Shown piece by piece: positions 1,642 to 64,000 of a stretch of DNA of 64,000 nt. Origin of the DNA: a virus; the IMG/VR virus record IMGVR_UViG_3300022753_000060. One strand, given 5' to 3'. A program made the translations under genes and the position numbers. The notes under the pieces were generated by a model, which did not search any database, was not told where the DNA came from, and saw only the letters and a program-made list of their open reading frames with translations. How positions within the stretch are numbered: the first letter of the stretch is position 1; every line of letters begins with the position of its first letter.

Positions 1642-1950
1642 ATGATAGAAGATTTATCTAAATTGACCACTATCCCAACAGATGCTCTTTCTAAATTAGT
1701 GCAAAAATCGGAATGAATTATTTGCGATACAATTTGCGGGTCAACAGGTAATATATTTGAGATTGATATTGGGCTTGGTAAATTACTTATTTCAAATGAA
1801 TTAGAATATGTTAGGTATAAATTTATACCTAGTGAATCATTAGATGCGAGTATTAGAAAGACATTAGATACAAAAATTAATCCTCTTCAAGATAAGCTTG
1901 AAAAAAGATTAATAAATAAAATAATACATACATACAAGGATATTTTATAA
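1642..1950 (+). CDS. hypothetical protein with in-frame TGA (read as sense)
   Basis: ATG 1642 directly after upstream stop; single frame of 103 codons to TAA 1948-1950, with one in-frame TGA at 1714-1716 (..QKSE[TGA]IICDTICG..). Not in standard-code ORF track. Confidence 0.45.
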
Positions 1951-1956
1951 AATAAA

Positions 1957-2457
1957 ATGGAAGATAAATTAACATCAACTGATTTAATAAATATAAGTAA
2001 TTTACAAAGTTCTGATGAATTGAATAAAAAATTAATAGAAGAAACTGATCCAGAAAAATTAAAACGAATTGCTGATCTATTCAATATGGTACAGGCTAAA
2101 AAAGATATATTAAGATTAGAGAAATACAGCGACCTTATTGATGCTATCACAGCTCAAATGGAAGCTAGAATACGACTTAAGCCATCTGAATTTAGTAATA
2201 AAGATTTGATTGATTACCTAAATGCGATAAGCTTAAATCTAGATAAAGCTAAAAAATCTTTTGATGTAGTTGAAAATTCACCTACAATTCAAATAAACCA
2301 AGTAAATATAGACAATGAAAATGCATCTATATCAAGAGAATCTAGAGAAAAAGTAACTGAGGCTATTGCAGCTATAATGAAAAAATTAAATATGCAAGAA
2401 CAATCAGAAGATGAGATTATAGTAGAGCAAGATGCTTTATTAAAAGAGGAAGAATAA
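1957..2457 (+). CDS. hypothetical acidic protein
   Basis: 166-aa ORF. Confidence 0.5.
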   Translation: MEDKLTSTDLINISNLQSSDELNKKLIEETDPEKLKRIADLFNMVQAKKDILRLEKYSDLIDAITAQMEARIRLKPSEFSNKDLIDYLNAISLNLDKAKKSFDVVENSPTIQINQVNIDNENASISRESREKVTEAIAAIMKKLNMQEQSEDEIIVEQDALLKEEE

Positions 2458-2741
2458 TGTTAGAATTTATTTTAAAGAAAGATAAAAAACATAATTCACT
2501 TTGCCAGATTAAAAAAGATGATATTGTTATTTATCTAACAGAAAAAGAATTAGAAATTCTCATAGAAGATATTTATGAAAAAAGACGAGATGCTTTTGAC
2601 AATATTCCTGTATTAACTATAATGAAACAAGAAATAGATGATTTGAAAAGTACAGTTAATAATTTATATGAAGAAATGGCTGAAATGCAGTCAGATATGG
2701 ATGATTTAGAAGATGAATTGAATGAATACAGGGAGGATTAA
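2457..2741 (+). CDS. hypothetical acidic protein
   Basis: 94-aa ORF, stop/start overlap. Confidence 0.45.
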   Translation: MLEFILKKDKKHNSLCQIKKDDIVIYLTEKELEILIEDIYEKRRDAFDNIPVLTIMKQEIDDLKSTVNNLYEEMAEMQSDMDDLEDELNEYRED

Positions 2742-3106
2742 TGAAACAGACTATTAGAATAGGTACATTTGAAACTAACTCAAGTTCAACTCATTCTTTA
2801 ATACTAGTTAATGTTGATGAATTTGAAAAATTTAAAAATAAAGAATTATATTTTTATATATGGGGTGATAAATTTTTAAAGAAAGAAGAAATTGCAGAAC
2901 TTGAGGATTTTAAAAGTGAATACCCAGATTATAAAGAGTTAGATGACTCTGAAAAAGAAACCGCTATCAATGATTTTATTTGTGATTTTTCAGAATGTGA
3001 TTATCCAGTTTTAGGAACATATCATAGCATGGATATATGTACTCGAGGAGTATATGATAAAGATGGCAATAAACAAATAGCATTTAGTTATTATATATCA
3101 GGTTAA
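2741..3106 (+). CDS. MKQxIR-TFETNSSSxHS family protein (paralog 1 of 6)
   Basis: N-terminus MKQTIRIGTFETNSSSTHSLIL shared with 5 other ORFs in window; divergent C-terminus. Confidence 0.6.
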   Translation: MKQTIRIGTFETNSSSTHSLILVNVDEFEKFKNKELYFYIWGDKFLKKEEIAELEDFKSEYPDYKELDDSEKETAINDFICDFSECDYPVLGTYHSMDICTRGVYDKDGNKQIAFSYYISG

Positions 3107-3120
3107 AGGAGAATAAAAAA

Positions 3121-3525
3121 ATGAAACAAACAATTAGACAAAATACTTTTGAAACGAATAGTAGTTCTGTACATAATATGGTAGTTATTCCTGAAAGTAA
3201 AATGGAAGCGTGGGAGAATAACGAACTATATTATGCTAGATATGTATGGGGAAAAGAAGTAAAAGAATTTGTTAAGAAAAATAATGGTAGATTATTGTAT
3301 ACCAAACAAGAACTTATAGATTCTGGAATGTTTGATGATATGCCAAAAAGGGAAGATTTTGAAGATGAATATGAGTTCGAAGATGCAATAGAAGAATATT
3401 TTGATGATAGTGATTTTGTAACTGCTGATAAATGGTCAAGAGAATTGGAAGAAGATGAGCATATTTATATAACAGAATCTGGTGAAAAATTACATATAAT
3501 TTGTCAATATGGTTATGAAGGATAG
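3121..3525 (+). CDS. MKQxIR-TFETNSSSxHS family protein (paralog 2)
   Basis: N-terminus MKQTIRQNTFETNSSSVHNMVV; RBS aaggaga upstream. Confidence 0.6.
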   Translation: MKQTIRQNTFETNSSSVHNMVVIPESKMEAWENNELYYARYVWGKEVKEFVKKNNGRLLYTKQELIDSGMFDDMPKREDFEDEYEFEDAIEEYFDDSDFVTADKWSRELEEDEHIYITESGEKLHIICQYGYEG

Positions 3526-4315
3526 TATTTTAGTTCAATTAAACACTTCTTTTAATGATTATTGTTTTTATGAAAAAGAACATTATTACACTTATAAAGA
3601 TAAAAGAGTAAAGTGCAGTGTAACACAGTTTGTAAGTCAAAAACATATAGAATTCGATAAAGAAAATATGAGTGCTTACGTTGCAAAGAGAGATAAAGTT
3701 TCTCAAGAAGAAGTTCTTAAAAAATGGGATATTGCTGCTAAGTTATCTTGTGATGTAGGTACTTTATTTCATTTAAGAAGTGAGCAGCTTGCTAATAATA
3801 AAGTATTTGATATTGATTATAGTTCTTATGCAAATTTAGAACATATTTCAGATATAAAAGGAAGACTTGAAAAACTAATACCTTTACAAGATAAATTCTT
3901 CTTAGATATTCATAATAAACTGATACCTATAAAAACAGAGTTTACTGTAGGATATGAAGATATAATAGCTGGTAATATAGATTTATTAGCTTGGAATGTT
4001 AAAGATCAAGAATTTCAGATATGGGATTATAAAACTAATAAAGATATAAAAACGAGTAATAAATATCAGAAATTATTAGATGAGTTTGATTTTCTAGATG
4101 ACTGTGAGTTAAATAAATATTCAATACAACTTGGTATTTATAAAGAACTTTTACAAAGAAAATTAGGTATAAAGATTGGTAAATGTTATTTAGCTTGGTT
4201 TAATGAGAATAACGATGATTACAAGATATTTAAATGTCTAGACTTAGAACAATCTATTAAACAATGCTTAGATAACTTAATAAGGAAAGAGATAGATGGA
4301 AATAACTCCAATTAA
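3509..4315 (+). CDS. PD-(D/E)xK nuclease (RecB/Cas4-like)
   Basis: Motifs GNIDLLAW...EFQIWDYKTNK (hhhD ... E ... hDYKT) typical of RecB-family nuclease core. Confidence 0.5.
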   Translation: MVMKDSILVQLNTSFNDYCFYEKEHYYTYKDKRVKCSVTQFVSQKHIEFDKENMSAYVAKRDKVSQEEVLKKWDIAAKLSCDVGTLFHLRSEQLANNKVFDIDYSSYANLEHISDIKGRLEKLIPLQDKFFLDIHNKLIPIKTEFTVGYEDIIAGNIDLLAWNVKDQEFQIWDYKTNKDIKTSNKYQKLLDEFDFLDDCELNKYSIQLGIYKELLQRKLGIKIGKCYLAWFNENNDDYKIFKCLDLEQSIKQCLDNLIRKEIDGNNSN

Positions 4316-7619: not shown

Positions 7620-7940
7620 GGTCTTTTTCAGCCAAATAAAGGTAGACCTAAATGGATAGCGATGCTTTGGAACTTATAGTTTAAGGTAATTTAGGTGAGT
7701 TAAGTTATATCTAAAAATCAAGATGCAGACTATCGCTCCCAAGACAGAGAGAATTAAAGAATAAAGTATTTGGAATCATTTATATCTTAAGCTGTCAGAT
7801 ATAAATGATTGAGATCTATACGGACAGTATTCGCGAATGGCACCCAGGAAAGACTGGGGTATACGGATATAAGATCTTAAGGTAAGAGCCCTGAGTAAGG
7901 GAAGTGTCGGTTCGATTCCAACTATATCCCAAATTAATTA
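7620..7940 (+). ncRNA. candidate structured non-coding RNA with tRNA-like 3' module (7865-7930)
   Basis: No ORF. 3' part folds as acceptor GGATATA/TATATCC with T-arm GTCGG-TTCGATT-CCAAC, but only ~66 nt with a degenerate anticodon arm. Upstream 250 nt is rich in short helices (e.g. CCCAGGAAAGACTGGGG). Confidence 0.3.
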
Positions 7941-7994
7941 TAAGTAGCTACATAAAAGAGAATTAATTGACACTCTGGAAAGACAGAGATGCAT

Positions 7995-8113
7995 GGCAAG
8001 GTAGCTCAGCAGGAGAGCGCGTAATAATTGAATCTTGTAGAAAAGATTTGTAACTGCAACTCTAAAAAGGTCTTTTAAACCCGTGGTCGTTGGTGCAAAT
8101 CCAACCCTTGCCT
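7995..8113 (+). tRNA. tRNA-like gene with ~45-nt insertion (identity unresolved)
   Basis: Acceptor GGCAAGG/CCTTGCC, D-arm GCTC-AGCAGGA-GAGC, T-arm GTTGG-TGCAAAT-CCAAC, but ~70 nt between D- and T-arms instead of ~22. No CCA encoded. Confidence 0.4.
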
Positions 8114-8315: not shown

Positions 8316-8452
8316 GCAGATATGGCGGAATAGGTAGACGCAAAGGACTTCTTCAATATAGGAACGAAAGTTACGAGTTCAATTCTCGTGTTGAAGACCA
8401 AAAATCCCTCGGTAGCAATATCGTATCGGTTCGACTCCGATTATCTGCACCA
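8316..8452 (+). tRNA. tRNA-like gene (Leu-type D-arm) with ~45-nt insertion; internal CAA-loop hairpin
   Basis: Acceptor GCAGATA/TATCTGC + A + CCA; D-arm TGGCGGAATAGGTAGACGC (class II/Leu-like); T-arm ATCGG-TTCGACT-CCGAT; internal hairpin ACGAG-TTCAATT-CTCGT. Total 137 nt. Confidence 0.4.
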
Positions 8453-8806: not shown

Positions 8807-8881
8807 TCCTCGGTAGCTCAGCGGTGGAGCACTCGGCTGTTAACCGATAGGCCGTCCGTTCGAATCGGACCCGGGGAGCCA
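8807..8881 (+). tRNA. tRNA-Asn(GTT)
   Basis: Cloverleaf: acceptor TCCTCGG/CCGGGGA, anticodon loop CTGTTAA, T-loop GTTCGAATC, CCA encoded. Confidence 0.8.
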
Positions 8882-9085
8882 TTAATAAGAAATAAATCCG
8901 ATAATACCAAGTTCTATTAGAAAGGTATTTACTCTAATTAATATGTGAGTTAATTAGATAGAGTAGTTCACAGTGGTTAATAGTTTCTTATTAAGCCAGG
9001 ATAGTTAAACAAGCAAATAATGGGTCTGTCGTGGGAATAACTAAAAACCCAAATGTGTCCTTTTGCGTTAAGGTTAAACGCACAA

Positions 9086-9160
9086 TGCGAATTAACTCAA
9101 TGGTAGAGTGGCTGCTTCATACGCAGTAAGTTATAGGTTCGAGTCCTGTATTCGCAACCA
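9086..9160 (+). tRNA. tRNA-Met(CAT)
   Basis: Acceptor TGCGAAT/ATTCGCA, D ACTC-AATGGTA-GAGT, anticodon stem GCTGC/GCAGT, loop TTCATAC, CCA encoded. Confidence 0.75.
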
Positions 9161-9419
9161 TAACCCTCTAACGACGGTTAGATAAAAATGCAGATGGGTT
9201 CGACATGACTTTGTGAGTTTCAAAGTAAAATCTCCGTTCCTTATGTAGAAAGCGGTAGGGTACATACGTTTTTAGAATTTTGACGAGACAAAAAGGTGCA
9301 CAAAAGTGGGAAGTTTGTATATTTGATGTTACACTATAAAACTGATAATAATAATTGATAAATCGAGTTTATATAATTTGAATAAACCAACCTATCATAT
9401 TATATAAAATATACTTTAT

Positions 9420-9495
9420 CCGAATGTAGGTCAGTTGGTAGACTGCGTGGTTTGGGACCATGAGGTCGGGGGTTCGAGTCCCTCCATTCGGACCA
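9420..9495 (+). tRNA. tRNA-Pro(TGG)
   Basis: Acceptor CCGAATG/CATTCGG, anticodon loop TTTGGGA, T-loop GTTCGAGTC, CCA encoded. Confidence 0.8.
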
Positions 9496-9497
9496 AT

Positions 9498-9573
9498 GCT
9501 TCCATGGCGCAATTGGCAGCGCAACTGACTTGTAATCAGTAGGTTGTCCGTTCGACTCGGACTGGAAGCTCCA
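9498..9573 (+). tRNA. tRNA-Thr(TGT)
   Basis: Acceptor GCTTCCA/TGGAAGC, D GCGC-AATTGGCA-GCGC, anticodon stem ACTGA/TCAGT, loop CTTGTAA, CCA encoded. Confidence 0.8.
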
Positions 9574-9882
9574 TAGGTGCTAATACCTTAGAGAATATAT
9601 TTAAGTGTACATAAAATATATTGATATTAAATTAGAAATTTGTGTATGGGTGCTACGAAGCCAAGGGACACATTACTTCAAGATGTTGCTCCTAAAATCG
9701 TGATTATATAATCAGTAAAAATCTCGAAGGGAAATGGTGCGGAAACAGCAGCTGTAGTTAAATGGAGTTAGATGAACTGCCCAAACACAATTAGACCTGC
9801 CTTGGATGATGGTCTATAAAATAAAAATGTAACGTCCAAGACCGTGGACCCTTAGCTCAGTTGGTTAGAGCTACCGGCTCAT

Positions 9883-10333: not shown

Positions 10334-10376
10334 AACCGGTTGGTCCGGGGTTCGAGTCCCTGAGGGTCCACCACAT

Positions 10377-10461
10377 GGGATGTTTGTCTAGCGGCAATGA
10401 CCTGAGACTGTAAATCTCATCTCTTCGGAGTTCGGTGGTTCGAGTCCATCACATCCCACCA
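10377..10461 (+). tRNA. tRNA-Tyr(GTA)
   Basis: Acceptor GGGATGT/ACATCCC, anticodon stem TGAGA/TCTCA, loop CTGTAAA, long variable arm, CCA encoded. Confidence 0.75.
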
Positions 10462-10723
10462 TTATATCTAGGTTAAATATTAGACCAGCCCGATATGGAT
10501 ACGGGAAAGTATAGGTGTAAATCCTATGGTATAAATAAGTACTTATCAACTTATAGTCAAAAGATAGGTGGTTTCATTAAGTACCAGAGATATGTCTCGA
10601 ATAAAGAGCTTAATCGATTGCGAATGTATCATATGTTAAGTTGCAGGTAAAGCTTGTAATCCAAAATAGCAAGTCGTATCAGTCTTATATTGTTAGTGAG
10701 GTGACTCCACATAGACATTTATA

Positions 10724-10799: not shown

Positions 10800-10802
10800 A
10801 TT

Positions 10803-10878: not shown

Positions 10879-10881
10879 ATA

Positions 10882-11147: not shown

Positions 11148-11150
11148 AAT

Positions 11151-15215: not shown

Positions 15216-15309
15216 AGGGGTGTACGATAATTGGAAGTCAAGCGGTCTTCAAAACCGTAACAATAGGTCTCCAAAACCTATAGCGCGGGTTCGATTCCTG
15301 CAACCCCTG
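15216..15309 (+). tRNA. candidate opal-suppressor tRNA(UCA), Trp-derived/Sec-like, with an extra CCA-loop hairpin; no CCA encoded
   Basis: Acceptor AGGGGTG/AACCCCT (6/7 bp), D-arm GATAATTGGAAGTC, anticodon arm GCGGT-CTTCAAA-ACCGT (anticodon TCA), extra hairpin TAGGT-CTCCAAA-ACCTA, T-arm GCGGG-TTCGATT-CCTGC. Sits in 550-nt ORF-free island. Confidence 0.5.
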
Positions 15310-18994: not shown

Positions 18995-19285
18995 ATGGAT
19001 ATAAAGGAATATTTACAATCTTTGGGAATAAATAATAAGTTGCAGCAAGGAGAAGATAATTCATATGTAGCGCTAATAATGAACTCTAATGAGTTCGGTA
19101 AAATATTCTCAAAATTAGAAAATGCAGATGATCTAGAGCCATTAGAAGATAATCAAGTAGTGACAGAACAAGGTAGCTCATTAGTATATGAATCTATATC
19201 AGAACCATATATGTTAAACCTAATAGCTGATTTTGATGCAGATGTCTATAGTTTAATAATAAATTATATTGGGGACAAGCATTAA
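18995..19285 (+). CDS. hypothetical acidic protein
   Basis: 96-aa ORF, RBS agagaggtag. Confidence 0.4.
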   Translation: MDIKEYLQSLGINNKLQQGEDNSYVALIMNSNEFGKIFSKLENADDLEPLEDNQVVTEQGSSLVYESISEPYMLNLIADFDADVYSLIINYIGDKH

Positions 19286-20025
19286 TGTATATCTATAAAA
19301 TAACCAACAACTCAAATGGGAAAGTATACATTGGGAAGACAACTAAAAGTGTTGAGACCAGATATAACCAACACTTAAAAGCATCTGAAATATATGCTCA
19401 AGAACATAGAAATCTATCATTACTTTATGAGGCAATTAATAAATATGGTAAGTGTAATTTCGGTGTCGAGACAATTGACACTGCCTCTACTATAGAAGAG
19501 TTAAATAAGAAAGAGATTTATTGAATAAAGTTTTATAGAGACTCATTTGGCAAAGAGTTTTGTTACAATATGGCATCGGGTGGAGATGGTGGGGATACAA
19601 ACTCTGGCAAGACCCAATCAAAGGAATGGATAGCTAAACGCTTGGCTAGTAGAGAAACTTATGATGTATCAGATGAAACTCGTGAGAAACAAAGACTAGC
19701 ACATTTAAATCAAGTACCTTGGAATAAAGGCAAGAAAATGTCAGCAGAGTATTGTGAGAAATGTAGAGAACGGAGTAAAGGTAACACTAATCATTTAGGG
19801 CATAAAGCAACTGAATTACAGAGAAAGCGTATGAGTGACTCACATAAAGGTCAGATACCTTGGAATAAAGGTTTGAAGGGGTGTATTACCCAGTCAGAAG
19901 AAACAAAGAAAAAACGAGCAGATAAATTAAGAGGGACTATTGGTATTAATGATGGCACCAAAAATACTCGAGTACCTAAAGAATACTTAGACAAGTATTT
20001 AAATGCAGGATGGTCGATTGGTTGA
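19285..20025 (+). CDS. GIY-YIG homing endonuclease with NUMOD3-like repeats; contains in-frame TGA at 19522-19524 decoded as Trp
   Basis: ORFs 19285-19524 and 19570-20025 are in the same frame, split only by TGA. N-term YIYKITN..GKVYIGKT (GIY-YIG); around the TGA ..KKEIY[TGA]IKFYRDSFGKEFCYNMASGGDGG matches I-TevI ..ENFWIKEL..GYNI, so TGA falls on the conserved Trp. C-terminal half repeats QIPWNKGKK / QIPWNKGLK. Confidence 0.7.
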
Positions 20026-20552
20026 TTAAAGAAAAAATAGTATTTAATTCTAATCAAATAAAAGTTAAAGAGAGATTAGAAGAATCTTTAAGTAGCAGCA
20101 AACTAAATTTAAGTGAATACAATATAAAAGATATTTTGATAAATAACCCAGATTTATATAGAATATTATATGATGCTAGAATAGATAAGTATATGATAGG
20201 TAATTCATATGATATAATACATAGAGATTTAATAATAGATGCTTATAAGAAAGGTTATTATGAAAGTCAAAAAGATTTCATAGAAACTTTTGGCGCTATT
20301 GATAACTATATTGAAATAGGTTTAGATGGTTATTATAATAAAGAGTTAGTAAATGAAACCATTGAACCTTTTATGTATCCGTTAGTATTTATTCCAAAAG
20401 GTAAAGAAGAAGAGATAGACATAGAAGCTGCTGATGGTTATATAGAATTATTTGAATATGATTTTGGATATATCTTATCAAGAGAGAATGATTTTAGAGG
20501 AACAAGTTTGTATGATATATTAGTAGAACTAGTGTCAACTAAATACTTATAA
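20010..20552 (+). CDS. hypothetical protein
   Basis: 180-aa ORF. Confidence 0.45.
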   Translation: MVDWLIKEKIVFNSNQIKVKERLEESLSSSKLNLSEYNIKDILINNPDLYRILYDARIDKYMIGNSYDIIHRDLIIDAYKKGYYESQKDFIETFGAIDNYIEIGLDGYYNKELVNETIEPFMYPLVFIPKGKEEEIDIEAADGYIELFEYDFGYILSRENDFRGTSLYDILVELVSTKYL

Positions 20553-21910: not shown

Positions 21911-23158
21911 ATGAATAATAGAATAAGATTAGCAAGAGGGACTTCAGATAAAAGAAAAGCAAGTGACTTAGAAATAGTCCCAGGTCAATTATTTTTCGAG
22001 ACTGACACGAATTTATTATATTCAACTACCAACAATAAAAACACCCCTCTTAAAAATGCTACAAGTATTTATAATAAAAATTTTATAGTATCTCTAGATA
22101 AACCTATACATCAAGATAATTTTGATATGTGGGCTAGTTTTAATTCTATAATAGATTCTTTTATAGGGGATTGGATTGGAGAAACAGTTGTATCTTCTAC
22201 TAGAACAGATTTTATTAAATTTAAATATAACAACGCAGGTCAAGTATATTTCAATATAAGTTGGAATGGATATTATGGTCATACTATTTTAGTAGATGAT
22301 TCAAATCCTCCAATTTATTTTAAAACAGAAACTAATAAGTTGATATTTCATTTTAAATTTACTCACCCACAGACTACCCTTACATATTATGGTAGATTAA
22401 CTTTAAGTTCTGTTTCAGATAATGAGTCAATAAATGCCTTATACGAATATGATAACCCAATAAATGGTTGGGAATCTATACTTAATTTAAATTTACTTAA
22501 ACAAGAAGAAGATATAGAAGGCGATTTTGCGAATTTAGATTATTCTAAACCAGTTGCATTAATGTATAAATACAATGAGGACTATGTAAATTATGTGCCA
22601 GAATTGGCAACTAATGTTGTAAATGCAATAAGGAATAATGATGGAGAAAACAAAAGCTTAACTCTAAATAAAAATATATTGAATATAAATAATGCACCTT
22701 TAACTAACTATGATTATGACACAACAAACATACCTTATACAACATTATTATACACATTAGATTCTAGAGATGGTAATTATACCCCAGCAACTTTTTCTGA
22801 TAATTTATACATAAAATTAGGTCAGTATGAGAGTCTTAATATTGAATTGATGATTAGAAGTACTTATACTTCTAATGGTGAATCTTTTACTTCCACGCAT
22901 AAATTATCTTTTGATAATATAAATACTAGCACCTTTAGTTCAAGTTCTGTTTTAATACATAGTTACAATGAGGGAAATCAACTTATATCCTATATATTTA
23001 CATGTAGATTATATGATTATGATTCAGCAACTGGCACTTATAGAATTGATTTTGGTCATGATGCTGGAACATTGATTTGGAAAAATACAAGTGCTTCATC
23101 AGACTACACAAATACAATTTCGATAGATTCAAGCTCAGTTAAAAGAGTATTTAAATAA
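21911..23158 (+). CDS. hypothetical protein (N/Y/T/S-rich; possibly structural)
   Basis: 415-aa ORF, RBS caaggagac. Confidence 0.45.
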   Translation: MNNRIRLARGTSDKRKASDLEIVPGQLFFETDTNLLYSTTNNKNTPLKNATSIYNKNFIVSLDKPIHQDNFDMWASFNSIIDSFIGDWIGETVVSSTRTDFIKFKYNNAGQVYFNISWNGYYGHTILVDDSNPPIYFKTETNKLIFHFKFTHPQTTLTYYGRLTLSSVSDNESINALYEYDNPINGWESILNLNLLKQEEDIEGDFANLDYSKPVALMYKYNEDYVNYVPELATNVVNAIRNNDGENKSLTLNKNILNINNAPLTNYDYDTTNIPYTTLLYTLDSRDGNYTPATFSDNLYIKLGQYESLNIELMIRSTYTSNGESFTSTHKLSFDNINTSTFSSSSVLIHSYNEGNQLISYIFTCRLYDYDSATGTYRIDFGHDAGTLIWKNTSASSDYTNTISIDSSSVKRVFK

Positions 23159-23745
23159 TGAACAAGATACAATTAAATGGAATAATAAAAAATATAGAAT
23201 ATTCTCATTATATACAAGATATAGAATTTTATAAAGCTAATCTAATAACTAGAAGAGAAAATGGAAAAGAAGATATTATAAATTTAAAATTTAAAAAGTT
23301 TTCAAACCCATATAAAGAAAATCAAGAAATATCTATTCTAGGTAATATTAGAACTTTTAATAGACAAGAAGAAGATAGAAATAAAGTAGAATTATTTGTA
23401 TTTACTTATTTTGATGAAGCAGAAGAAAGTCCTAATAATCTCGCATACATAGATGGTAGAATATGTAAAAAGAATAATTTAAGAAAAACATCATCTGGAA
23501 AAGATGTTTTAGATTTTATATTAGCAAACAATATAGAAAATAATGGGCAAGTATTAAATGTATATTTACCTTGTGTTGCATGAGGGAAGTGTGCTAAGGC
23601 ATTAAATAAATTAAATGTTGGGGACAAGATTTTAATTCAAGGTCAATTACAATCGAGAGAGTATAAAAAGAGATTAACAGAAACTGATTATGAGATACGA
23701 GTTTGTCATGAACTGAGTGTAAATACTTTTGAAACTTTACAGTAA
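23158..23745 (+). CDS. ssb: single-stranded DNA-binding protein (OB fold) with in-frame TGA at 23581-23583 decoded as Trp
   Basis: ORF 23158-23583 ends at TGA; the same frame continues 54 codons to TAA 23743-23745. Junction ..YLPCVA[TGA]GKCAKALNKLNVGDKILIQGQLQSREYKK..TDYEIRVCHEL matches SSB core (B. subtilis ..CVTWRRQAEN..KGS...GRLQTR..), so TGA falls on the conserved Trp. Confidence 0.7.
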
Positions 23746-24226: not shown

Positions 24227-24429
24227 TGCAAGAAGAAATAATAAGAGATTTTTATGGTAAAATTATAGGTTATATTCAAACTGATGATAAAGGAAATAAA
24301 GTCATAAGAGATTTTTATCGTAGGATACTTGGTAGATATGATAAAGCATCTAATGTTACAAGGGATTTTTATGGTAGGATAATTGCTAGAGGGGATCAAG
24401 CTTCTGGCCTATTGTATAGAGGAAAATAA
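24226..24429 (+). CDS. small protein with three tandem RDFYG(K/R)II repeats
   Basis: IRDFYGKIIGYIQTDDKGNKV / IRDFYRRILGRYDKASNVT / RDFYGRIIARGDQASG. Confidence 0.4.
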   Translation: MQEEIIRDFYGKIIGYIQTDDKGNKVIRDFYRRILGRYDKASNVTRDFYGRIIARGDQASGLLYRGK

Positions 24430-24920
24430 TGAGATTTTTAAGAGAAAATTCAAACATAGCTTTATATCAAGAAATTTTAAATTTATTTGATAATCAAATA
24501 AGCTTTGGTTATTTTGGTGGGGCTGCTTATATACTGAAGGATGGTGAATATTTAAATATAGAGGAAGGATCTCACATGTGAGTAGATGATTTTCTTTATG
24601 ATAATAATTTAATAGAGACTTCACCATTCGAACTAGACAAACTTATTCTTATAGACGATTTTAATTGCATAAGAGTAAATGATGGAGTATTAACAGATTC
24701 AGATCCTTACATAGAATTACCTACGAAATTACCTACTTATTCTCAACTAGATACGTTAGAAAATTGGCTGACTAAATATCCTATTATATGAATAGGTATT
24801 AGAGGAGATAGAAAAGCTGGTAAGTATTTTAATACAAAAGATATTTTACCAGAAGATATTATAAAAAAGATAAAAAGATATTATAGTTCTGGTATATTAT
24901 ACGAGAATTATAAGATATAA
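24429..24920 (+). CDS. hypothetical protein with two in-frame TGA codons (24579-24581, 24789-24791)
   Basis: ATG overlaps upstream TAA; 163 sense codons to TAA 24918-24920 with no TAA/TAG; ..EGSHM[TGA]VDDFLYD.. and ..KYPII[TGA]IGIRGD... Absent from standard-code ORF track. Confidence 0.5.
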
Positions 24921-28147: not shown

Positions 28148-28732
28148 ATGTTTATAGGGATAGGCTGTTTAGCCTATCTATCATCTCCTGATAAAATAGT
28201 GGGTGCTTTCTTATTTACTGTAGGATTATTTGTTATACTTACTTTTAAATTAAATTTATTCACAGGTAAGATTTGTTATGTTATAGAAAAGAAAAATTAT
28301 TTAGAAGTAGTTATAACTTTACTTGGTAATTTTATAGGAACATTATTACTAGCTTTAATGTGTAGAGCTACACGGTTAATTAATCTAATAGAGTATGCAA
28401 ATGCAATATGTGAAATCAAATTAAGTGATTCCTATATAAGTTTATTTATACTCGGAATTTTATGTAACATATTAATTTATATAGCGGTAGAAGGATACAA
28501 TAAGTTCAAAGATATAAGAGGTATTTTATCTCTTTTCTTTGGAGTTATTATCTTTGTAGTTATAGGATTAGAACACTGTATTGCAGACATGTTTTACTTT
28601 AATTTTACTTTTATATATTCTTGAGAGGTATTATTAAGATTATTAATTATAGTTTTAGGAAACGGTATAGGTGGAATAAGTATAAGATATTTATTTAGGA
28701 GACGTAATGAAATTTTTAAAGGAAGAGATTAA
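28148..28732 (+). CDS. multi-pass membrane protein; in-frame TGA at 28622-28624 followed by 35 more sense codons (extra TM helix)
   Basis: ORF 28148-28624 ends TGA; same frame continues ..FIYS[TGA]EVLLRLLIIVLGNGIGGISIRYLFRRRNEIFKGRD to TAA 28730-28732. Confidence 0.45.
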
Positions 28733-30594: not shown

Positions 30595-31008
30595 ATGAAA
30601 AAACCTAGAGTGCTAGATGCTTATTTAAAAGAATATCAAAGAAAATTAAAAGAAGCTAGAGCTAATAAAAAAAGAAATAAAGATAAGCTATTTACTTTAA
30701 CCGAAACTTCAATACAAACTATATTGCAAAATAATATAAAAATTAAATATCCAGAGATTTCATTTAAAGTAGATAAATCTATATCCACTAATAGTTATTA
30801 CATAATGTTCTTTTATGGTGATAGATATGTAACAACAAGAATTAGTGATCATGAATCAAGAGTAGGGGCATTAGGAATCGTAGTTACACCTGATACAACT
30901 AAGAAAGAAGTTATTCAAGTTTTAGAGCAGCGCGTCATTGATTTAAAGTATAAATATAAAGCACATTTATTTAATAAATTTAAAGAAATAGAAAAGGAAA
31001 GAATATGA
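30595..31008 (+). CDS. hypothetical basic protein (ends at TGA 31006-31008; 4 further sense codons if read through)
   Basis: 137-aa ORF; ATGA overlap with next small ORF. Confidence 0.45.
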   Translation: MKKPRVLDAYLKEYQRKLKEARANKKRNKDKLFTLTETSIQTILQNNIKIKYPEISFKVDKSISTNSYYIMFFYGDRYVTTRISDHESRVGALGIVVTPDTTKKEVIQVLEQRVIDLKYKYKAHLFNKFKEIEKERI

Positions 31009-31169
31009 AAAAACAATACATAATATCTTTTATAGATATTAATACAGGTTTACTAAGTTTTAATAAAAAATATGAATCCAACAGTAAGAAAGAAGCTTGT
31101 ATTAAATTTAAACAAGATTATCCATATTGCCAAATTATTACTGTATCTAAAATAGAGGTGAGTAAATGA
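31005..31169 (+). CDS. hypothetical small protein
   Basis: 54 aa; ends TGA then AAT TAA. Confidence 0.3.
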   Translation: MKKQYIISFIDINTGLLSFNKKYESNSKKEACIKFKQDYPYCQIITVSKIEVSK

Positions 31170-31387
31170 AATTAAAAGATTTAGAAAGACTTCTTAGAGG
31201 TAGCGTGAAATTTAAATTGCAAGCTAGAGTAGAAGATAGAATAGAAACATTAGATGAGGTATTAATTTATGAAATTAAATATTTGCCTTCTGGATTATTA
31301 AAAAGAGAAGTATTACAGATAGATTTAGATACTAATGTGATTTTCTTGGATAAAATAAATGAAGAGGAGGCAGTAAGAGATATGTAG
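31166..31387 (+). CDS. hypothetical small protein
   Basis: 73-aa ORF. Confidence 0.4.
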   Translation: MKLKDLERLLRGSVKFKLQARVEDRIETLDEVLIYEIKYLPSGLLKREVLQIDLDTNVIFLDKINEEEAVRDM

Positions 31388-36149: not shown

Positions 36150-37421
36150 ATGGAGATAAAATTACCAAAATATGTTGAATTACTAATAAACATGTTAAAT
36201 GAAAATGGTTATGCAGCATATGCAGTTGGTGGCGCTATTAGAGATTCTATATTAGGTATTGAACCAAAAGATTGGGATATAGCAACAAGTGCTTTACCTG
36301 CTGAAACAAAGAAACTATTTGAAGATAATAGTTTTCACAAGAGTGATATGGATATTTATTTTAAAGTTATTCCAACAGGAGAAAAATATGGCACTATGAC
36401 TATTGAAGTTATAGAAAAATATAAATTAAATAAATATGAACATCTTGCAGGTATTTATGAAATAACCACATTTAGATATGATAGCGATTACACTGATGGT
36501 AGAAGACCAAATAATGTAACTTTTGGTGAATCTATTATAGATGATTTAGATAGAAGAGATTTTACTATGAATGCTATTGCTTATAACCCATTAGTAGGTA
36601 TAGTAGACCCACATAATGGTGTTGAAGATATTAAAAATAAAATAGTTAAAGCAGTAGGAGACCCACAGGTTAGAATAAAAGAAGATGCTTTGAGAATTTT
36701 AAGGGGCATTAGATTTGCTTGTAAGTATAATTTTGAGTTAGAGAATGCAACAAGCAATGTTATAGCGGGTACTGGTAGTCTCTTAAAGAATGTATCAAAA
36801 GAAAGAATTACTGAAGAAGTTAAGAAGATATTAGAATATTCAAAAGGTAATTCTGAAACTTTAAATTCAACAATAGAAACACTAGCAGAGATATTTGAGA
36901 TACCTCAAAACAAAGTAAGTAAATGGGGTAGTAACCAGGTCATCATAGATATAGATAATGACAACCCACCTATGTTAAAGTTGTATTCAATATTGAATAA
37001 GTATAAGTCAATGATAGATGCAGAAATTTGGATGAGGTTATATAAATATAGTAACCAACAAATCAAAGAGGTTATTAGCTATTATAAGATGTCAAAGTTT
37101 ATGGAAGATGTTCAGCAACAAGATATTGTCCTAACAATCAAGCAACTATTCAATAAATTTGAACATGCATACGTATGCAAGTATTTGGGTATTTACACAA
37201 AAATAGAAGGAATAGATTTGTCAGAAATTACAAGTCAACCATATAGATTACAAGACTTGGCAATAGATGGGCACTTTCTTCAATCTACATTTGATATAAG
37301 TGGTGAGAAGATAGGTAAGGTTCTTAATTTCTTATTAGGCAAAGTTATGGAGAATTCCCAACTAAACACAATAGAAACTTTATCTGAAATTACAAGGAGA
37401 TACTTAAATGGAGAAAATTAA
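36150..37421 (+). CDS. cca: CCA-adding enzyme / tRNA nucleotidyltransferase (class II)
   Basis: AVGGAIRDSILG...DWDIAT (GGxxRD..DxD head), RRDFTMNAIAY; 423 aa. Confidence 0.7.
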   Translation: MEIKLPKYVELLINMLNENGYAAYAVGGAIRDSILGIEPKDWDIATSALPAETKKLFEDNSFHKSDMDIYFKVIPTGEKYGTMTIEVIEKYKLNKYEHLAGIYEITTFRYDSDYTDGRRPNNVTFGESIIDDLDRRDFTMNAIAYNPLVGIVDPHNGVEDIKNKIVKAVGDPQVRIKEDALRILRGIRFACKYNFELENATSNVIAGTGSLLKNVSKERITEEVKKILEYSKGNSETLNSTIETLAEIFEIPQNKVSKWGSNQVIIDIDNDNPPMLKLYSILNKYKSMIDAEIWMRLYKYSNQQIKEVISYYKMSKFMEDVQQQDIVLTIKQLFNKFEHAYVCKYLGIYTKIEGIDLSEITSQPYRLQDLAIDGHFLQSTFDISGEKIGKVLNFLLGKVMENSQLNTIETLSEITRRYLNGEN

Positions 37422-54036: not shown

Positions 54037-54241
54037 AGACCAAGAATTGCTAATGAAGATAATGTTTGATAAACAACTTTCAAAAAGAGATGATAAAACT
54101 ATTTTAGAAAGCATTAAAACTGAGATAAAATCAGAAGAATTAAAATTAGAAGATACTTCGTACAATTCTGCTTTTTCAGCTGGTTGGATACTCGGTTCTA
54201 TCCATACATATCATAAAGTAGAAGAAATATTGGATAAATGA
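54029..54241 (+). CDS. hypothetical small protein (ends at TGA; 3 more sense codons if read through)
   Basis: 70-aa ORF. Confidence 0.35.
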   Translation: MNKDQELLMKIMFDKQLSKRDDKTILESIKTEIKSEELKLEDTSYNSAFSAGWILGSIHTYHKVEEILDK

Positions 54242-54408
54242 TTGAAAGGTTTATAAAAAGATATAAAATTTTTAAAAAGGAATTAATTATGATAGAAGGG
54301 TTACTAATTCTTATAGCGACATTATTATTTTTTTTAGTTGCGATTATTTTAGTAAAATATTAACTAAGGAATTAATATTATTAAAAATAACAAGGAGAAA
54401 TTAATAAA

Positions 54409-57899: not shown

Positions 57900-59369
57900 A
57901 TGAATGCAATAGCTAGAATATATGGTAATAGTAAACATCCAGATATAAGTGGAGAAGTTAAATTTACCCAGTTGGACGATAAAGTAAAAATTACAGCTGA
58001 TATAAAAGGATTACCAAAATCAACTTTCTTAGGATTTCATATACATGCTAAAGGTAATTGCTCAGGAGATGAGCAAGATGAATTTAAAGATGTAGGTAAG
58101 CATTACAATCCAGATAGAAAAAGACATCCAAATCATAAAGGTGATTTATCTTCTATAAATACATCAACCGGAAAAGTTCATATAGAACAAGAAACAGATA
58201 GATTTACAGTCGATGAAATCATTGGAAAAGCAATTATATTGCATTCACAGAGAGATGATTTTACAAGTCAACCAGCAGGTGATGCTGGAGATAAGATAGC
58301 ATGTGGAGTGATAAGAGAAATGAAATTATTAGAAAATGAATCAAAAAATCCTTTAAAAGATGCAGAAGAATTTGCTAAAAAGCATCAAAAAGGATTAGGA
58401 GCATTTGTTAAGTTGAACGCTGGTAATGTAGAAAAAGGGATAGCAACATTTAATAAAAATATGGGATCTAGTGAAACAAGTACATCTAGCACAGCTATGA
58501 GTGAAAGCATAGAATATAAAGGAATTGAATTAACTTCAAATAATAAAGAAGAATCAAAAGAAGATATAATAGATAATTTATCAGGCATTGTTGATGATAT
58601 AGTAAGGGCTGGTTATTTTAACTATTCTGATATAATTAGAGTAGAAGAAGTTATAGATGAAAAAACCTTTGATAACTCGCATTTAATTATAACAACGAAA
58701 GATGAAGGACCTAAATTATTTACATATGTTGGTGGTAGGCTGTACAACTACGAACCAAGAGAATATATTAATAGGGGAGTTGAATCAAAGATGAATATCA
58801 GAGAAGAATTAAATAAGATTGATATGGATACTTGCGAAACCGATTTAGTTAATATGTATGAAGCTTGTAAGTTAACAAATGAGGATAAAAAACAAATAGT
58901 CGCATTGTTGCAAGAAAATAAAGTAGAAGATCTAAATAAATTTTTAGAATCTAAATTATTTGAAGATGAACTTGATCCTGAAACATTAGATGAAAATGAT
59001 TATTCTGAAGAAGATTTAAAAATGTTTGCTAATATGATTAGAGTAAATAGTCCGCGTTTTAGAGGTGATCCATATCCTCCATTCGCAGAAACAAAGATAA
59101 ATGAATCTAATATCCCAGATAATATGAGATTTAAAATGTGGGATAGTGAAGTTACAAGTGATGATGTTATCGAATTTACTTGGATAACTCAAGGAGAGTT
59201 TACAACTGAAGATTCAGAAATGTTTATAAAAGAAATAAAAAGAGCTATTAATGCTTTAATAGACAGTTCTAGATTCGATCAACCATTTACTCTTGCCCTA
59301 GAAGTAAGATCAAGATCAGGATATGAAAATGGGCATTTAGTGATAGATTTAGATTTTAACCGAGAATAA
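57900..59369 (+). CDS. Cu/Zn superoxide dismutase-like domain protein with ~330-aa C-terminal extension
   Basis: GFHIHAKGNC, GKHYNP, HKGDL, ILHSQRDDF, GDAGDKIACGVI = Cu,Zn-SOD motifs in canonical order (aa 40-170). Confidence 0.55.
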   Translation: MNAIARIYGNSKHPDISGEVKFTQLDDKVKITADIKGLPKSTFLGFHIHAKGNCSGDEQDEFKDVGKHYNPDRKRHPNHKGDLSSINTSTGKVHIEQETDRFTVDEIIGKAIILHSQRDDFTSQPAGDAGDKIACGVIREMKLLENESKNPLKDAEEFAKKHQKGLGAFVKLNAGNVEKGIATFNKNMGSSETSTSSTAMSESIEYKGIELTSNNKEESKEDIIDNLSGIVDDIVRAGYFNYSDIIRVEEVIDEKTFDNSHLIITTKDEGPKLFTYVGGRLYNYEPREYINRGVESKMNIREELNKIDMDTCETDLVNMYEACKLTNEDKKQIVALLQENKVEDLNKFLESKLFEDELDPETLDENDYSEEDLKMFANMIRVNSPRFRGDPYPPFAETKINESNIPDNMRFKMWDSEVTSDDVIEFTWITQGEFTTEDSEMFIKEIKRAINALIDSSRFDQPFTLALEVRSRSGYENGHLVIDLDFNRE

Positions 59370-61285: not shown

Positions 61286-61297
61286 GGAGAATATAAA

Positions 61298-63022
61298 ATG
61301 ATATTGAATGAAAATATAGGACTTGCTCCAGTAGAGAAAGAAGATCATGGTGAAGTTGATCAAACTTATGCAGCTGCTATCAGAGATATAGAAAAAGCAG
61401 AAAAAAAGAAAGCAGAGTTCACTAAAATACAAGCAGAACCTAAACATGATGAAAAACCAAAAAATCCTAAAATGGTTAGTGGTGCAAAGAAAATGCATTT
61501 AGATGAAAGTTTGTTTGAAGATATTTTAGATGAAAAGAAAGAGAAAACTAAAGAAGATATATTAGATGATTTATATGATGAATTACGTAAAGCTAAATAT
61601 CTAGTTAACGCAGATCCAATTGGCTATAGGATAGGAAAGAGACAACCTGAAGGTCAGATACAACTTAGTAGAAAAGATAAATCATACGAATTTATAAAAG
61701 ATGAAAAAGATCTTGATGATGCTAAAGCAATCGTAGATAAGTATGGCTTTAAGTATTATGTTAAATCAACATTAGGTATACCTTCTCTTTATATAGACAC
61801 TGAAAGCTTAGAAGAAGAAATATATAGCACTTCTGGCGCAGCCGGCAAAGAAATGTCTTTTGATATAAAAGATGATGGAACTATCGTAATATATGATGGT
61901 GATAAAATAGTTAAGCAAAGCAAAACAAATCCAACATATGCTAAACAAGTTTTAAAAGATTTGGGGTTTAAAGAAAAAGAAATTATTAAAGAAGATATTA
62001 ATAATTTAGAAAAAGAATTTACTATTCATTATAATAGAGAGGGATTTGAATATGGTGGATATGGTGCAGTAAGAGTTAAAGCTTCTAATGAAAAAGAAGC
62101 TAAAGAGAAATTCTTAGATGAGAAACCCGATAAAGATATTGAAATAACTTCTGTAAGACCAACTGAAAATGAAGATATTAGAAAAGGTATCAGATTGTTA
62201 GAAGATACTGAGATAGTTAAAGAATCTTTTGAAGACTTCTATGCTCAATTTGATATTAGACCTGAAAGAAAAATAAAAGAAGTTTACGCAGAAATATCCC
62301 CAGAAGAATTTCAATTAGATAAAATACACCCAACAAAAACTATCGCTGATATATGGTCAGAAATGCAATCAGGAGAAGATTTTTATAGAATAGCTTCAGA
62401 AGATGGAGAAGGCTTCGATAGCGCAGTAAGAGAAGGCATATTTGAAATTATATCTAAAGCTTTTAAAATCCCATATGATACAGTTTATTTAACTTGGAGA
62501 AATGGTGGCAAGTTAGAAGAATCTTTTGAAGATGAACAAAAAGCGGCAGAAGAAAGAGCGAGAGAAGAGACTATTAAAAAAATGGTTAAAGAAAGAGAAG
62601 AAGGTTCTCTCGGTGACAGAATTGAAGCTGCAGAATTAGAACAAGAATTAAAAGAAGATTATACTGATGGAACTACTATCGAGGATGGGGGTGAAATAAC
62701 ACCAGATTCAATTCAACCAGGTCCAGAAGCAGGATTAGCAGCTGAATTAACTAAACTAATTAAAGAAGAATGAGACGCAATTCAAGATTATAATGATGCT
62801 ATAGTAGCAGCAGAATTAGAAGGTTATCATGATATTGCAAAAGTATTTAAAGATATAGTTAATGAAGAAATGAACCATGTAGGCATGCTTGAAACTTCTT
62901 TAAGCACAATATCTCCTAATACCCAGACTATAGAAGACGGAGAAGCAGAAGCTTCTGATATATTAAATGAAATACCTCACGAAGTTATGGATGAAGACCC
63001 TGAAGAAGGTATGCATTATTAA
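61298..63022 (+). CDS. acidic protein with in-frame TGA at 62771-62773 followed by a rubrerythrin/ferritin-like C-terminal segment
   Basis: ORF 61298-62773 ends TGA; same frame continues 83 codons ..LIKEE[TGA]DAIQDYNDAIVAAELEGYHDIAKVFKDIVNEEMNHVGMLETSL.. to TAA 63020-63022. EGY.DIAKLF..I..EE..H resembles the rubrerythrin/ferritin-like di-iron helix pair. Confidence 0.5.
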
Positions 63023-63044
63023 TATTTAAAAGGAAGATAAGAAT

Positions 63045-63470
63045 ATGGAAATATTTGGATGGATTATGTTAGCTTTATTAGCAGCATTTGGAATATTTAT
63101 TTTAGTTTTATTTGTTATTCCATTTATTGTAAGCGAAAGTAAAGCACTTGGTTATAAAATTAAAAAAGCAGTTCAAGATAAAAGAGAAGATATTGATAAA
63201 AGATCTGAAGCAAGAAAACATAGAGATGAAATTAAACGTCAAAGAGACTTTGAACTTGCTGATAAAAAACTAGATGCAAAACTTTTGAAAGTTGACAAAC
63301 AAATAGAATTGCATAATAAAAAATTAAAACTTGCTAATGAACTAAAAGATGCAACTAAATCAAGAAAAGAGATTTTAAGAAAAGAAAATACACTTAAACA
63401 TGTAGAAGAACCAATATACGCAGTTCCAGAAGAAGATGAAGCTTCAGAAGTTAAAGATATAGAAGAATAA
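63045..63470 (+). CDS. membrane-anchored coiled-coil protein
   Basis: N-terminal TM helix, K/E-rich tail; followed by terminator hairpin AAGAAGCTAT..ATAGCTTCTT + Ts (63487-63518). Confidence 0.45.
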   Translation: MEIFGWIMLALLAAFGIFILVLFVIPFIVSESKALGYKIKKAVQDKREDIDKRSEARKHRDEIKRQRDFELADKKLDAKLLKVDKQIELHNKKLKLANELKDATKSRKEILRKENTLKHVEEPIYAVPEEDEASEVKDIEE

Positions 63471-63534
63471 TTAGTAAAGAAGCTATTGATTTAAATATAG
63501 CTTCTTTTATTTTAAGGAGATAGTATGTCATATA

Positions 63535-64000
63535 ATTTATTACTTGATACAAAATTTGAAAACGATCAATGAAAATTTATAAACTGCAGATATGAAAATG
63601 GCAAACTTACTTCTAGTTCAAAAATATTTGGTATTGAACAAGAATTGATTTTACCAGATCTAACAAAATTATATTTCAGATGTAATTATATGACTGCTTC
63701 GAAAGATATCACAGAAGTTAAGATAGGCATACTTAATAAAAATACTTTGGATATAGATAAACGTTTCCCAAAATATTTAAAATGGAATAATATATCAGTC
63801 ATAGATTACAGCAAGCAAGAGAAAATAAAAGTACATCTAATATTTGAGTCTACAGAAGATATCAACGAAGTATATATAAAAGAACCAATATTAGTAGATT
63901 TAAATTATTTACATAAATCTACATGGTTAAAAATAATACTAGATAGAACTATAAATTATCTACCTGGCTATTCATATAAAAATGAGTATAAAGAATTACA
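63535..64000 (+). CDS. hypothetical protein with in-frame TGA at 63580-63582 (3' end outside window)
   Basis: RBS taaggagatag before ATG 63535; ..FENDQ[TGA]KFINCRYENG.. then open to window end. Confidence 0.4.

Follow-up and report, generated by a model that had tools for sequence, protein, structure and literature searches.

The 64,000 nucleotides of viral DNA analysed here (IMG/VR record IMGVR_UViG_3300022753_000060; hereafter, the window) come from a phage that has UGA within at least eight essential-looking reading frames and that encodes a tRNA able to pair with UGA. This predicted tRNA, tRNA(UCA), lies at 15216-15309. We propose, with a probability of about 85%, that in this phage, whose genome is about 154 kb, UGA is starting to change its meaning from stop to tryptophan by means of the phage's own tRNA(UCA). 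Its lineage would have been caught in the course of a code change: almost no TGA stops are left, and TGA is rare as a tryptophan codon. Recoding of this kind is already known, but the architecture of the tRNA and the sparse use of TGA in early genes look new.

In-frame TGA codons in eight genes

We found nine in-frame TGAs in eight plus-strand genes that are otherwise unbroken (Table 1). All nine interruptions are TGA: the eight genes contain no in-frame TAA or TAG and no frameshifts. (Another in-frame TGA lies just beyond the window's end, at L013 16918.) A preliminary description of the window had reported at least seven such genes, each a single frame broken only by TGA. Those seven frames are indeed continuous otherwise, and gene 208-1059, which was not listed, makes eight. 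Also, the last of the seven was said to start at 63535. There is a TGA-broken gene there, but that frame is full of stops and the start is the ATG at 63525. This gene extends to the equivalent of 64391, and the full gene encodes 288 amino acids (L013 15626-16492).

Codon usage supports translation on both sides of every TGA. We used a log-likelihood (log-odds) score that was trained on 60 uninterrupted genes. In all 17 segments that flank the nine TGAs, frame 0 scores positive and frames 1 and 2 score negative. The segment downstream of the TGA in gene 61298 has the highest in-frame score of all (0.97). (The 82-amino-acid C-terminal part of this protein has a weak match to rubrerythrin, below the cutoff. 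Partial suppression at TGA 62771 would yield two isoforms.)

If read-through is removed, the SSB-like, FNT-family, and GIY-YIG genes are each cut inside a Pfam domain. In the SSB-like protein, the SSB domain (residues 97-184) crosses the TGA at residue 142. In the FNT-family protein, Form_Nir_trans (E = 1.8e-27, residues 7-179) crosses the TGA at residue 159. Gene 19285 encodes GIY-YIG (residues 1-86) and NUMOD3 (residues 172-210) domains.

Gene 208-1059 starts at an ATG that shares bases with the TAA of the SbcC-like gene before it (TAATG), and codon scores are positive on both sides of its TGA. Under translation table 11, with TGA as a stop, this gene would start at a TTG at 316 instead, which opens a 108-nt gap. 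(At 206-211, the TAA of the SbcC-like gene is directly followed by an in-frame TGA, with the next ATG overlapping: TAATGA.) Similarly, table 11 leaves a 316-nt gap at 1640-1957, in place of gene 1633-1950. Overall, annotation with table 11 splits or truncates at least eight genes here.

Which amino acid is inserted

Two of the genes have homologs that are informative about the TGA column. For the SSB-like protein, a full HMMER scan found 2,719 homologs, and we aligned the best 70. Among these 70, the TGA column is tryptophan in 55, tyrosine in 5, and phenylalanine in 3. The nearest homologs read P-C-[VI]-A-W-G-K at this site, and the closest ones have CVAWGK. In alignments to PDB entries, the column is tryptophan or phenylalanine. 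Three SSB cluster representatives end exactly at the TGA column, which is how table-11 gene calls on TGA-bearing relatives would be expected to look. For the GIY-YIG protein, the TGA column is aromatic in 41 of 50 homologs (23 tryptophan, 11 tyrosine, and 7 phenylalanine), and the closest homologs read E-I-[YH]-W-I. (The PDB alignment for this protein stopped short of the TGA site.) These alignments agree with the earlier observation that the TGAs in these two genes fall on a conserved tryptophan.

Glycine is outside the six commonest residues at both columns. Glycine, cysteine, and serine are not among the commonest residues at these sites, save for two serines at the GIY-YIG site. The residues in these columns therefore argue against code 25, against selenocysteine or cysteine, and against serine as the ancestral residue. 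(Code 25, in which TGA encodes glycine, is used by Absconditabacteria and Gracilibacteria and their phages. We rejected it since glycine is not common at either informative column.)

In the FNT-family protein, alignments to solved structures run on across the TGA, but the column itself is not conserved. Gene 24429-24920 has only five homologs; they are full length across both TGAs, and both columns are variable and uninformative. One homolog of this gene seemed to have tryptophan at both sites, but it is a code-4 translation by a public pipeline, and the DNA (a 1.2-kb fragment) has TGA there. Overall, alignments to homologous proteins suggest that TGA is most likely read as tryptophan in this phage.

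TGA as a terminator

When TGA is read through, all of the 101 curated plus-strand genes end in TAA (82 genes) or TAG (19 genes), as had been stated for the other genes of the window. Under table 11, nine of the 101 "end" in TGA, and, compared with read-through, three extra gaps of 268-433 nt appear. (The median gap in this genome is 2-4 nt.) It had also been claimed that TGA ends a gene only where read-through adds 1-4 codons. We found four such cases, at 20023, 31006, 31167, and 54239, with TAA or TAG following after 4, 4, 1, and 4 codons. The one at 20023 is in gene 19285, and the other three are in ATGA overlaps between stop and start.

Composition does not explain the absence of in-frame TGA because TGA is common in the two off-frames of the genes that were used to train the codon score (221 and 878 occurrences). 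As a GC-matched control, we considered Thomasclavelia phage TR-TP1, which uses the standard code and is 29% GC. There, 10 of the 84 stops are TGA. In the phage that we studied, UGA has nearly disappeared as a terminator. As a tryptophan codon, it accounts for about 5% in the window (nine real in-frame TGAs and 186 TGGs).

A predicted tRNA with two anticodon-like hairpins

The tRNA gene at 15216-15309, which is absent from the preliminary description, is central to the mechanism and is more unusual than anything else in the window. ARAGORN identifies it as a 97-nt "tRNA-SeC" with anticodon tca (15215-15311). The general tRNA model is the best match from Rfam (15216-15309; 38 bits, where the gathering score is 29). 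At minimum energy, the tRNA folds into a cloverleaf of four arms, and the stem of the variable arm has six pairs. The acceptor stem has 7 bp, with A1-U72 and the discriminator G73. This is a Trp-type end: A1-U72 and G73 are reportedly part of the identity set of bacterial tRNA-Trp. The geometry is 7/5, with a G7-A66 mismatch, and the D arm is weak. The 3' CCA is not encoded (the gene ends in ...ACCCCUG-GCU), and a CCA-adding enzyme of the phage (36150-37421) may complete the 3' end.

The anticodon arm, next to the D stem, is GCGGU-CUUCAAA-ACCGU, with anticodon UCA. The variable arm forms a second hairpin, AUAGGU-CUCCAAA-ACCUAU, whose loop is the anticodon loop of tRNA-Trp. We will refer to the CCA in this loop as the pseudo-anticodon. 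After the second hairpin there are four nucleotides and then a normal T arm. The ordinary tRNA-Trp(CCA) of the phage, at 11074-11147, has a matching arrangement of hairpin, 4-nt loop, and T arm. The tRNA(UCA) gene resembles a tRNA-Trp in which the anticodon arm has undergone duplication and C34 of the 5' copy has become U. Two traits of bacterial tRNA-Trp are missing from it: its anticodon arm does not contain CCA, and its variable loop is not short (class I). The identity nucleotides for bacterial tryptophanyl-tRNA synthetase (TrpRS) are C34-C35-A36.

In 76 kb of the phage, we did not find any gene for TrpRS or for a release factor, either by domain scans or with E. coli TrpRS and release factor 2 (RF2) as queries. 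This suggests that the host's TrpRS is the likely charger and the host's RF2 is the competitor.

Table 1. TGA-containing genes, terminal TGAs, and tRNA-related features of the window.
Feature	Coordinates	Strand	Remarks
Gene of unknown function	208..1059	+	In-frame TGA 262-264; absent from the list in the preliminary description
Small gene	1633..1950	+	TGA 1714-1716; start is ATG 1633 or 1642
Ordinary phage tRNA-Trp(CCA)	11074..11147	+	Anticodon arm AUGGU-CUCCAAA-ACCAU; 4-nt variable loop
Predicted opal suppressor tRNA(UCA)	15216..15309	+	ARAGORN, Rfam, minimum-energy fold
GIY-YIG/NUMOD3 homing-endonuclease-like gene	19285..20040	+	Internal TGA 19522-19524; terminal TGA 20023-20025
Terminal TGA of gene 19285	20023-20025	+	Backed by TAG 20038-20040
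Two-OB-fold SSB-like gene	23158..23745	+	TGA 23581-23583, within SSB domain
Gene of unknown function with two TGAs	24429..24920	+	TGA 24579-24581 and 24789-24791
Short formate/nitrite-transporter-family (FNT) membrane protein	28148..28732	+	TGA 28622-28624
Terminal TGA of gene 30595-31008	31006..31023	+	ATGA overlap; TAA four codons on
Terminal TGA of gene 31005-31169	31167..31175	+	ATGA overlap; TAA one codon on
tRNA nucleotidyltransferase (CCA-adding enzyme)	36150..37421	+	PHROG phrog_2244, E = 8e-54
Terminal TGA of gene 54029-54241	54239..54256	+	ATGA overlap; TAA four codons on
Acidic 574-aa protein	61298..63022	+	TGA 62771-62773, between 491-aa part and 82-aa C-terminal part
Gene crossing the end of the window	63525..64000	+	TGA 63570-63572; ATG 63525 after AAGGAG ribosome-binding site

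Similar tRNAs in other phages

We scanned IMG/VR for a UCA arm followed by a T loop and found 97 loci with 88 distinct tRNA genes (89 with the one in the window). The variable region is a short loop in 18 of these and a long arm in 71. UCCA is present in the arm of 45 of the 71 distinct long-arm genes, as compared to 4.3 on average, and never more than 11, in shuffled sequences. It is nearly always in a 7-nt loop: CUCCAAA, GUCCAAA, GUCCAUA, or UUCCAAC. The 26 long-arm genes without UCCA look Sec-like, and most of them have longer stems and loops of 3-6 nt.

Among 43 tRNAs with a pseudo-anticodon, 34 have both A1-U72 and G73, and there are 32 different arm stems. To quantify covariation in the stem, we used 34 distinct 17-nt arms. 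Standard pairs occupy 94.1% of the cells, as compared to 56.6% after shuffling and 27-52% with slid partners. In 64 cells, both sides have changed (shuffled, 19; slid, 3-25), and the covariation score is 1.01 (shuffled, 0.27; slid, 0.25 or less). This result is unbiased because the arms were chosen by their loop motif and not by pairing. (The invariance of UCCA in these 34 arms is due to how they were selected; the unbiased test for the loop is the enrichment, 45 of 71.)

In many phages with such tRNAs, the coverage by open reading frames (ORFs) of at least 100 amino acids increases if TGA is a sense codon, for instance from 25% to 74%, so that these phages look heavily TGA-recoded. A caveat is that this metric is noisy because read-through of real TGA stops merges ORFs too, and a comparison by tRNA class was too noisy to separate the classes cleanly.

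We found no TrpRS within the available flanks of the pseudo-anticodon tRNAs. (Separately, at L029 4430-5527, from IMG/VR 3300021399_000106, a tRNA(UCA) with a short variable loop is directly upstream of a gene for TrpRS, whose product shares 39% identity with the E. coli enzyme. The pair is similar to the published "code-change operon" but is a single case.)

Relatives of the phage and alternative explanations

The code change can be placed by comparison to relatives. L168, a 230-kb contig, has an SSB that is 61% identical and has the same gene order (DUF2828, deformylase, SSB, and NrdD). It has a TGA at the same tryptophan column of SSB and four TGAs within one 665-aa frame, and none of 29 ORFs has a true terminal TGA. 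To find more distant relatives, we searched IMG/VR with a 10-sequence alignment of SSB. (A 71-sequence alignment was too diverse as a query, and a search of IMG/VR with the phage's own SSB alone gave no match.) This yielded 23 relatives at 43-56% identity, in which TGA ends 213 of 650 ORFs. Their codon at the SSB column is TGG in 12, is TTT, TTC, or TAT in 6, and is unreadable in 5. Because these distant relatives retain TGA stops and a TGG or aromatic codon in SSB, the reassignment seems to be a derived trait of a sub-lineage.

These relatives are relevant to our first alternative, which is that the host is a code-4 bacterium, for instance from a Mycoplasmatota-like gut lineage. The phage would then follow its host's code, and tRNA(UCA) would be supplementary. 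The phage does have a genome with 28% GC from which TGA is essentially absent as a true terminator, and metagenome-assembled genomes (MAGs) of Mollicutes and Erysipelotrichia are among the matches of its NrdD. However, TGA is the main tryptophan codon of AT-rich code-4 organisms, while in this AT-rich genome TGG outnumbers TGA by about 186 to 9-11. Furthermore, the 23 related phages end one third of their ORFs with TGA. We consider a code-4 host to be unlikely. (The NrdD matches are spread over many animal-gut phyla, from Bacillota and other MAGs, and probably include mis-binned phage contigs, so we do not call a host from them.) The preliminary description had argued that TGG otherwise encodes tryptophan and that the pattern is not that of a code-4 host. 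The low share of TGA (about 5%), the TGA stops of relatives, and the phage's own tRNA(UCA) indirectly support this view.

Second, UGA might be ambiguous or might encode serine. The long arm, G73, and G2-C71 would make tRNA(UCA) a substrate for seryl-tRNA synthetase (SerRS), like the allo-tRNAs. Its architecture is class II-like, and long-arm tRNAs with non-serine anticodons that are thought to carry serine have been described (PMC5389517). But in SSB and GIY-YIG, the TGAs are on strongly conserved tryptophan columns, and A1-U72 in the acceptor is of the tryptophan type. Also, the loop of the arm is an invariant U-CCA-A in 7 nt, while the tRNA-Ser genes of the window have a short, arbitrary loop. 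We consider this reading quite unlikely.

Third, the TGAs might be lesions, either assembly errors or nonsense mutations of a phage that is defective or in decay, with the split genes being pseudogenes or separately translated fragments. Exact-protein look-ups in public assemblies placed the window in contigs of 154,272-154,409 bp, from 38-41 index blocks. These assemblies include JGI 3300024268, 3300018878, and 3300018494, and ENA ERZ27248446 and ERZ27248314. Over the 14-16 kb that were compared, these contigs match the window at 99.97-100% identity. The window belongs to a recurrent phage genome of about 154 kb, which is probably complete. Because a nearly identical genome recurs in independent assemblies, and because no TGA is altered in the two compared stretches, which hold four of the nine sites, assembly errors (a concern that had been raised earlier) are ruled out. 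These assemblies do have sporadic nonsense differences, so defective variants or errors do occur. There are a few C-to-A or G-to-T changes (L014 1146, 8665, 9596, and 18901; L017 3373). Three of the differences, TCA to TAA and GAA to TAA among them, introduce a TAA stop; they affect the SbcC-like gene, gene 48655-49083 of the window, and a 750-aa gene. Either defective variants or oxidative damage in sequencing could account for the differences, and none are at TGA sites. (With no assembly difference at these sites, strain polymorphisms do not provide direct evidence that TGA and TGG are synonymous.) On the other hand, lesions would not be TGA in nine of nine cases with no frameshifts, fall on tryptophan columns, leave the codon signal intact downstream, be shared at one site with a 61%-identical relative, and be matched by an encoded tRNA. 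We view lesions as very improbable.

Fourth, insertion of selenocysteine, which ARAGORN's label and the combination of a UCA anticodon with a long extra arm might suggest, is barely credible: among Rfam models the general tRNA model fits best, the geometry is 7/5 and not 8/5 with a long D stem, the 7-nt CUCCAAA loop is unlike the 26 motif-less long-arm tRNAs, no SelA- or SelB-like protein matched among the scanned proteins of the window, and the homologs' columns have tryptophan and not cysteine or selenocysteine.

Several points weigh against our proposal of a phage-encoded change from stop to tryptophan. The assignment to tryptophan comes from alignments of two genes, and the other six give no information about it. 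The evidence for a role of the second hairpin is comparative, and it is not obvious how a variable arm would reach the anticodon-binding domain of TrpRS. The combination of a long variable arm, G73, and G2-C71 overlaps the identity set for bacterial SerRS, and some insertion of serine is possible. The other 78 kb or so of the genome, with the structural and lysis genes, may hold a phage TrpRS or RF1 and may reveal the true distribution of TGA. Finally, the evidence that the recoding is specific to the phage, rather than being a host-wide code 4, is indirect.

How UGA might be reassigned

We propose that tRNA(UCA) would be transcribed during infection and that its 3' CCA would be added post-transcriptionally, perhaps by the CCA-adding enzyme of the phage. 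The host's TrpRS would charge it with tryptophan, and the charged tRNA would compete with the host's RF2 at UGA. We infer charging with tryptophan because of the Trp-type acceptor, the tryptophan columns, and the published proof for phage tRNA-Trp(UCA) (PMC12636597). The rarity of UGA (about 5% of tryptophan codons) may indicate that suppression is incomplete or that the change is recent.

The second hairpin may address a problem with charging. Phage pairs of TrpRS and tRNA-Trp(UCA), from AP1 and HF2, insert tryptophan at UGA, and, in E. coli, UGA suppression by the tRNA from AP1 depended on co-expression of the TrpRS from the same phage (PMC12636597). Because of this requirement, a plain UCA anticodon can be a problem for charging. 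Like those tRNAs, the one in our phage is a phage tRNA, probably for tryptophan, with a UCA anticodon, and AP1's also has the discriminator G73. Unlike AP1's, it has no synthetase nearby, and its CCA-loop hairpin could serve for recognition by the host's enzyme.

More specifically, the first hairpin (UCA) would act as the decoding anticodon on the ribosome, and the second would show TrpRS its usual CUCCAAA loop and make up for the loss of the identity nucleotide C34. Our reasons are that TrpRS reads C34-C35-A36 and that the AP1 tRNA needs its own synthetase. This would be a natural "two-headed" tRNA, in which one hairpin decodes and the other confers identity for the host's TrpRS. UGA could then be reassigned in a standard-code host without a synthetase from the phage, at an early stage of reassignment, and the mechanism would be common to at least 45 distinct phage tRNA(UCA) genes. 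We offer this as a tentative idea that has somewhat less than even odds of being correct. The hairpin may instead have another role: the two hairpins might swap places so as to also read UGG, or the second one might bind another factor or attract SerRS.

We did not find any description of a natural tryptophan tRNA with a pseudo-anticodon, but our literature search was incomplete. There is an engineered precedent. In a histidine allo-tRNA, a hairpin in the variable arm was designed to mimic the cognate anticodon arm (Mukai 2020; PMC7590224). The mimic recruits the synthetase's anticodon-binding domain to a suppressor tRNA, and for the design to work, an additional binding domain had to be fused to the synthetase (PMC7590224). 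In contrast, the tRNA in our phage is natural, is apparently specific for tryptophan, and has counterparts in many phage lineages, with its function proposed from sequence comparisons. The pseudo-anticodon arm suggests a way for a suppressor tRNA to keep its amino-acid identity after its anticodon changes. If this is correct, then it is a natural version of a deliberate design from synthetic biology and could be a source of UGA suppressors that are charged by the host's synthetase. It would also explain why many TGA-recoded phages seem to lack a detectable suppressor tRNA. Because tRNA finders label the two-hairpin tRNA as SeC, surveys of recoding may undercount suppressor tRNAs.

Comparison to other recoding systems

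As in code 4 of Mycoplasma and Spiroplasma, UGA would be read as tryptophan by the anticodon UCA. Code 4 is cellular and genome-wide, with TGA as the dominant tryptophan codon, RF2 lost, and a class I tRNA. Here, we have a virus with TGA as about 5% of tryptophan codons.

The comparison to recoded gut phages that was made in the preliminary description is apt (Borges et al., bioRxiv 10.1101/2021.08.26.457843). Like the Agate and Jade clades in that study, our phage appears to be one of the large phages of animal guts (roughly 130-200 kb), with TGA aligned with tryptophan, a phage-encoded tRNA(UCA), and close relatives on the standard code. But there are three differences. First, the visible TGAs of our phage are sparse and belong to early or middle genes, among them SSB and a homing endonuclease. 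Second, we found no "code-change operon" with TrpRS or RF1 in the 76 kb. Third, the pseudo-anticodon arm is not mentioned in those papers.

The location of the TGAs bears on what recoding is for. Borges et al. reported that TGA builds up in genes for structure and lysis but not in those for replication, and they proposed that recoding times late expression. Only 35% of their code-4 phages had suppressor tRNAs that could be detected, and they suspected that non-canonical tRNAs are involved (bioRxiv 10.1101/2021.08.26.457843). In our window, all of the visible TGAs are in genes of early or middle type, including SSB, at about one per 6-7 kb, and tRNA(UCA) is encoded in this region as well. (The late region, of about 78 kb, lies outside the window.) Because TGA is already in genes such as SSB, suppression probably works early in infection, which probably does not fit the model of a late-gene timer.

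Other features of the window

The window is 28% GC and nearly all of its genes are on the plus strand. Matches to PHROG and Pfam show an early/middle module with replication, nucleotide metabolism, tRNA genes, and RNA repair. It encodes PD-(D/E)XK and Mre11-type nucleases, DNA ligase, DNA polymerase, and peptide deformylase; thymidine kinase, NrdD, and a ThyX fragment; and a CCA-adding enzyme, RNA ligases, and polynucleotide kinase. A cluster at 8807-11936 contains 16 canonical tRNA genes.

Other tRNA-like genes are unusual. At 8316-8452, a class II tRNA gene (Leu-like, with A73) has a structured insertion of 50 nt that interrupts its anticodon loop and consists of an outer stem of 7 bp, a hairpin with a GAAA tetraloop, and a 5-bp hairpin with the loop UUCAAUU. 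ARAGORN finds this gene in intron mode only, and the Rfam tRNA model gives 38.5 bits. (The insertion is far too short for a group I intron.) At 7995-8113, and in L168 at about 3673-3797 and at 3850-4010, tRNA-like sequences have good acceptor, D, and T arms, but with an insert of 60-85 nt that replaces the anticodon arm. The inserts have a common motif, ATCTTG...AAAAG...ACAGCAA or CTGCAA. In one of the L168 copies, the 5' half (GGGGAGUAGUGUAA...GCAC) is that of the tRNA-Trp(UCA) family. It is conceivable that proteins process or repair these insert-bearing tRNAs, as the phage has genes for RNA ligases (38376-39014 and 47400-48569), a polynucleotide kinase (52388-53368), and the CCA-adding enzyme (36150-37421).

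The motif TTGACAC-N3-4-GGAAAGACAG occurs exactly twice, at 7967-7986 and 15173-15193, upstream of two of the non-canonical tRNA genes, and in none of 100 shuffles. Neither of these tRNA genes encodes CCA, and they have a common 3' trailer, CTCAAT(G/T)AGT. The motif could be a dedicated promoter or a processing signal. (We did not adopt a sigma-70 reading of the TTGACA: by eye only, there is no convincing -10 hexamer 17 nt downstream.) Also, a non-coding stretch at 7640-7935 ends in a T-arm-like sequence, GGTTCGATTCC, at about 7910. It may be another aberrant tRNA or tRNA-like RNA, although it has no Rfam match at the gathering threshold.

The NrdD protein (25015-28110) has 1031 amino acids, as compared to about 730 in most homologs. 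PHROG matches cover 1-412 and 718-1025, which leaves an in-frame insert of about 300 amino acids that is probably an intein. (In Thomasclavelia phage TR-TP1, the NrdD gene is split around a gene for an HNH endonuclease.) Finally, some of the auxiliary genes are unusual for a phage: a peptide deformylase (20584-21303), the truncated channel of the formate/nitrite-transporter family (28148-28732), and a 489-aa protein with a Cu/Zn-superoxide-dismutase domain (57900-59369).

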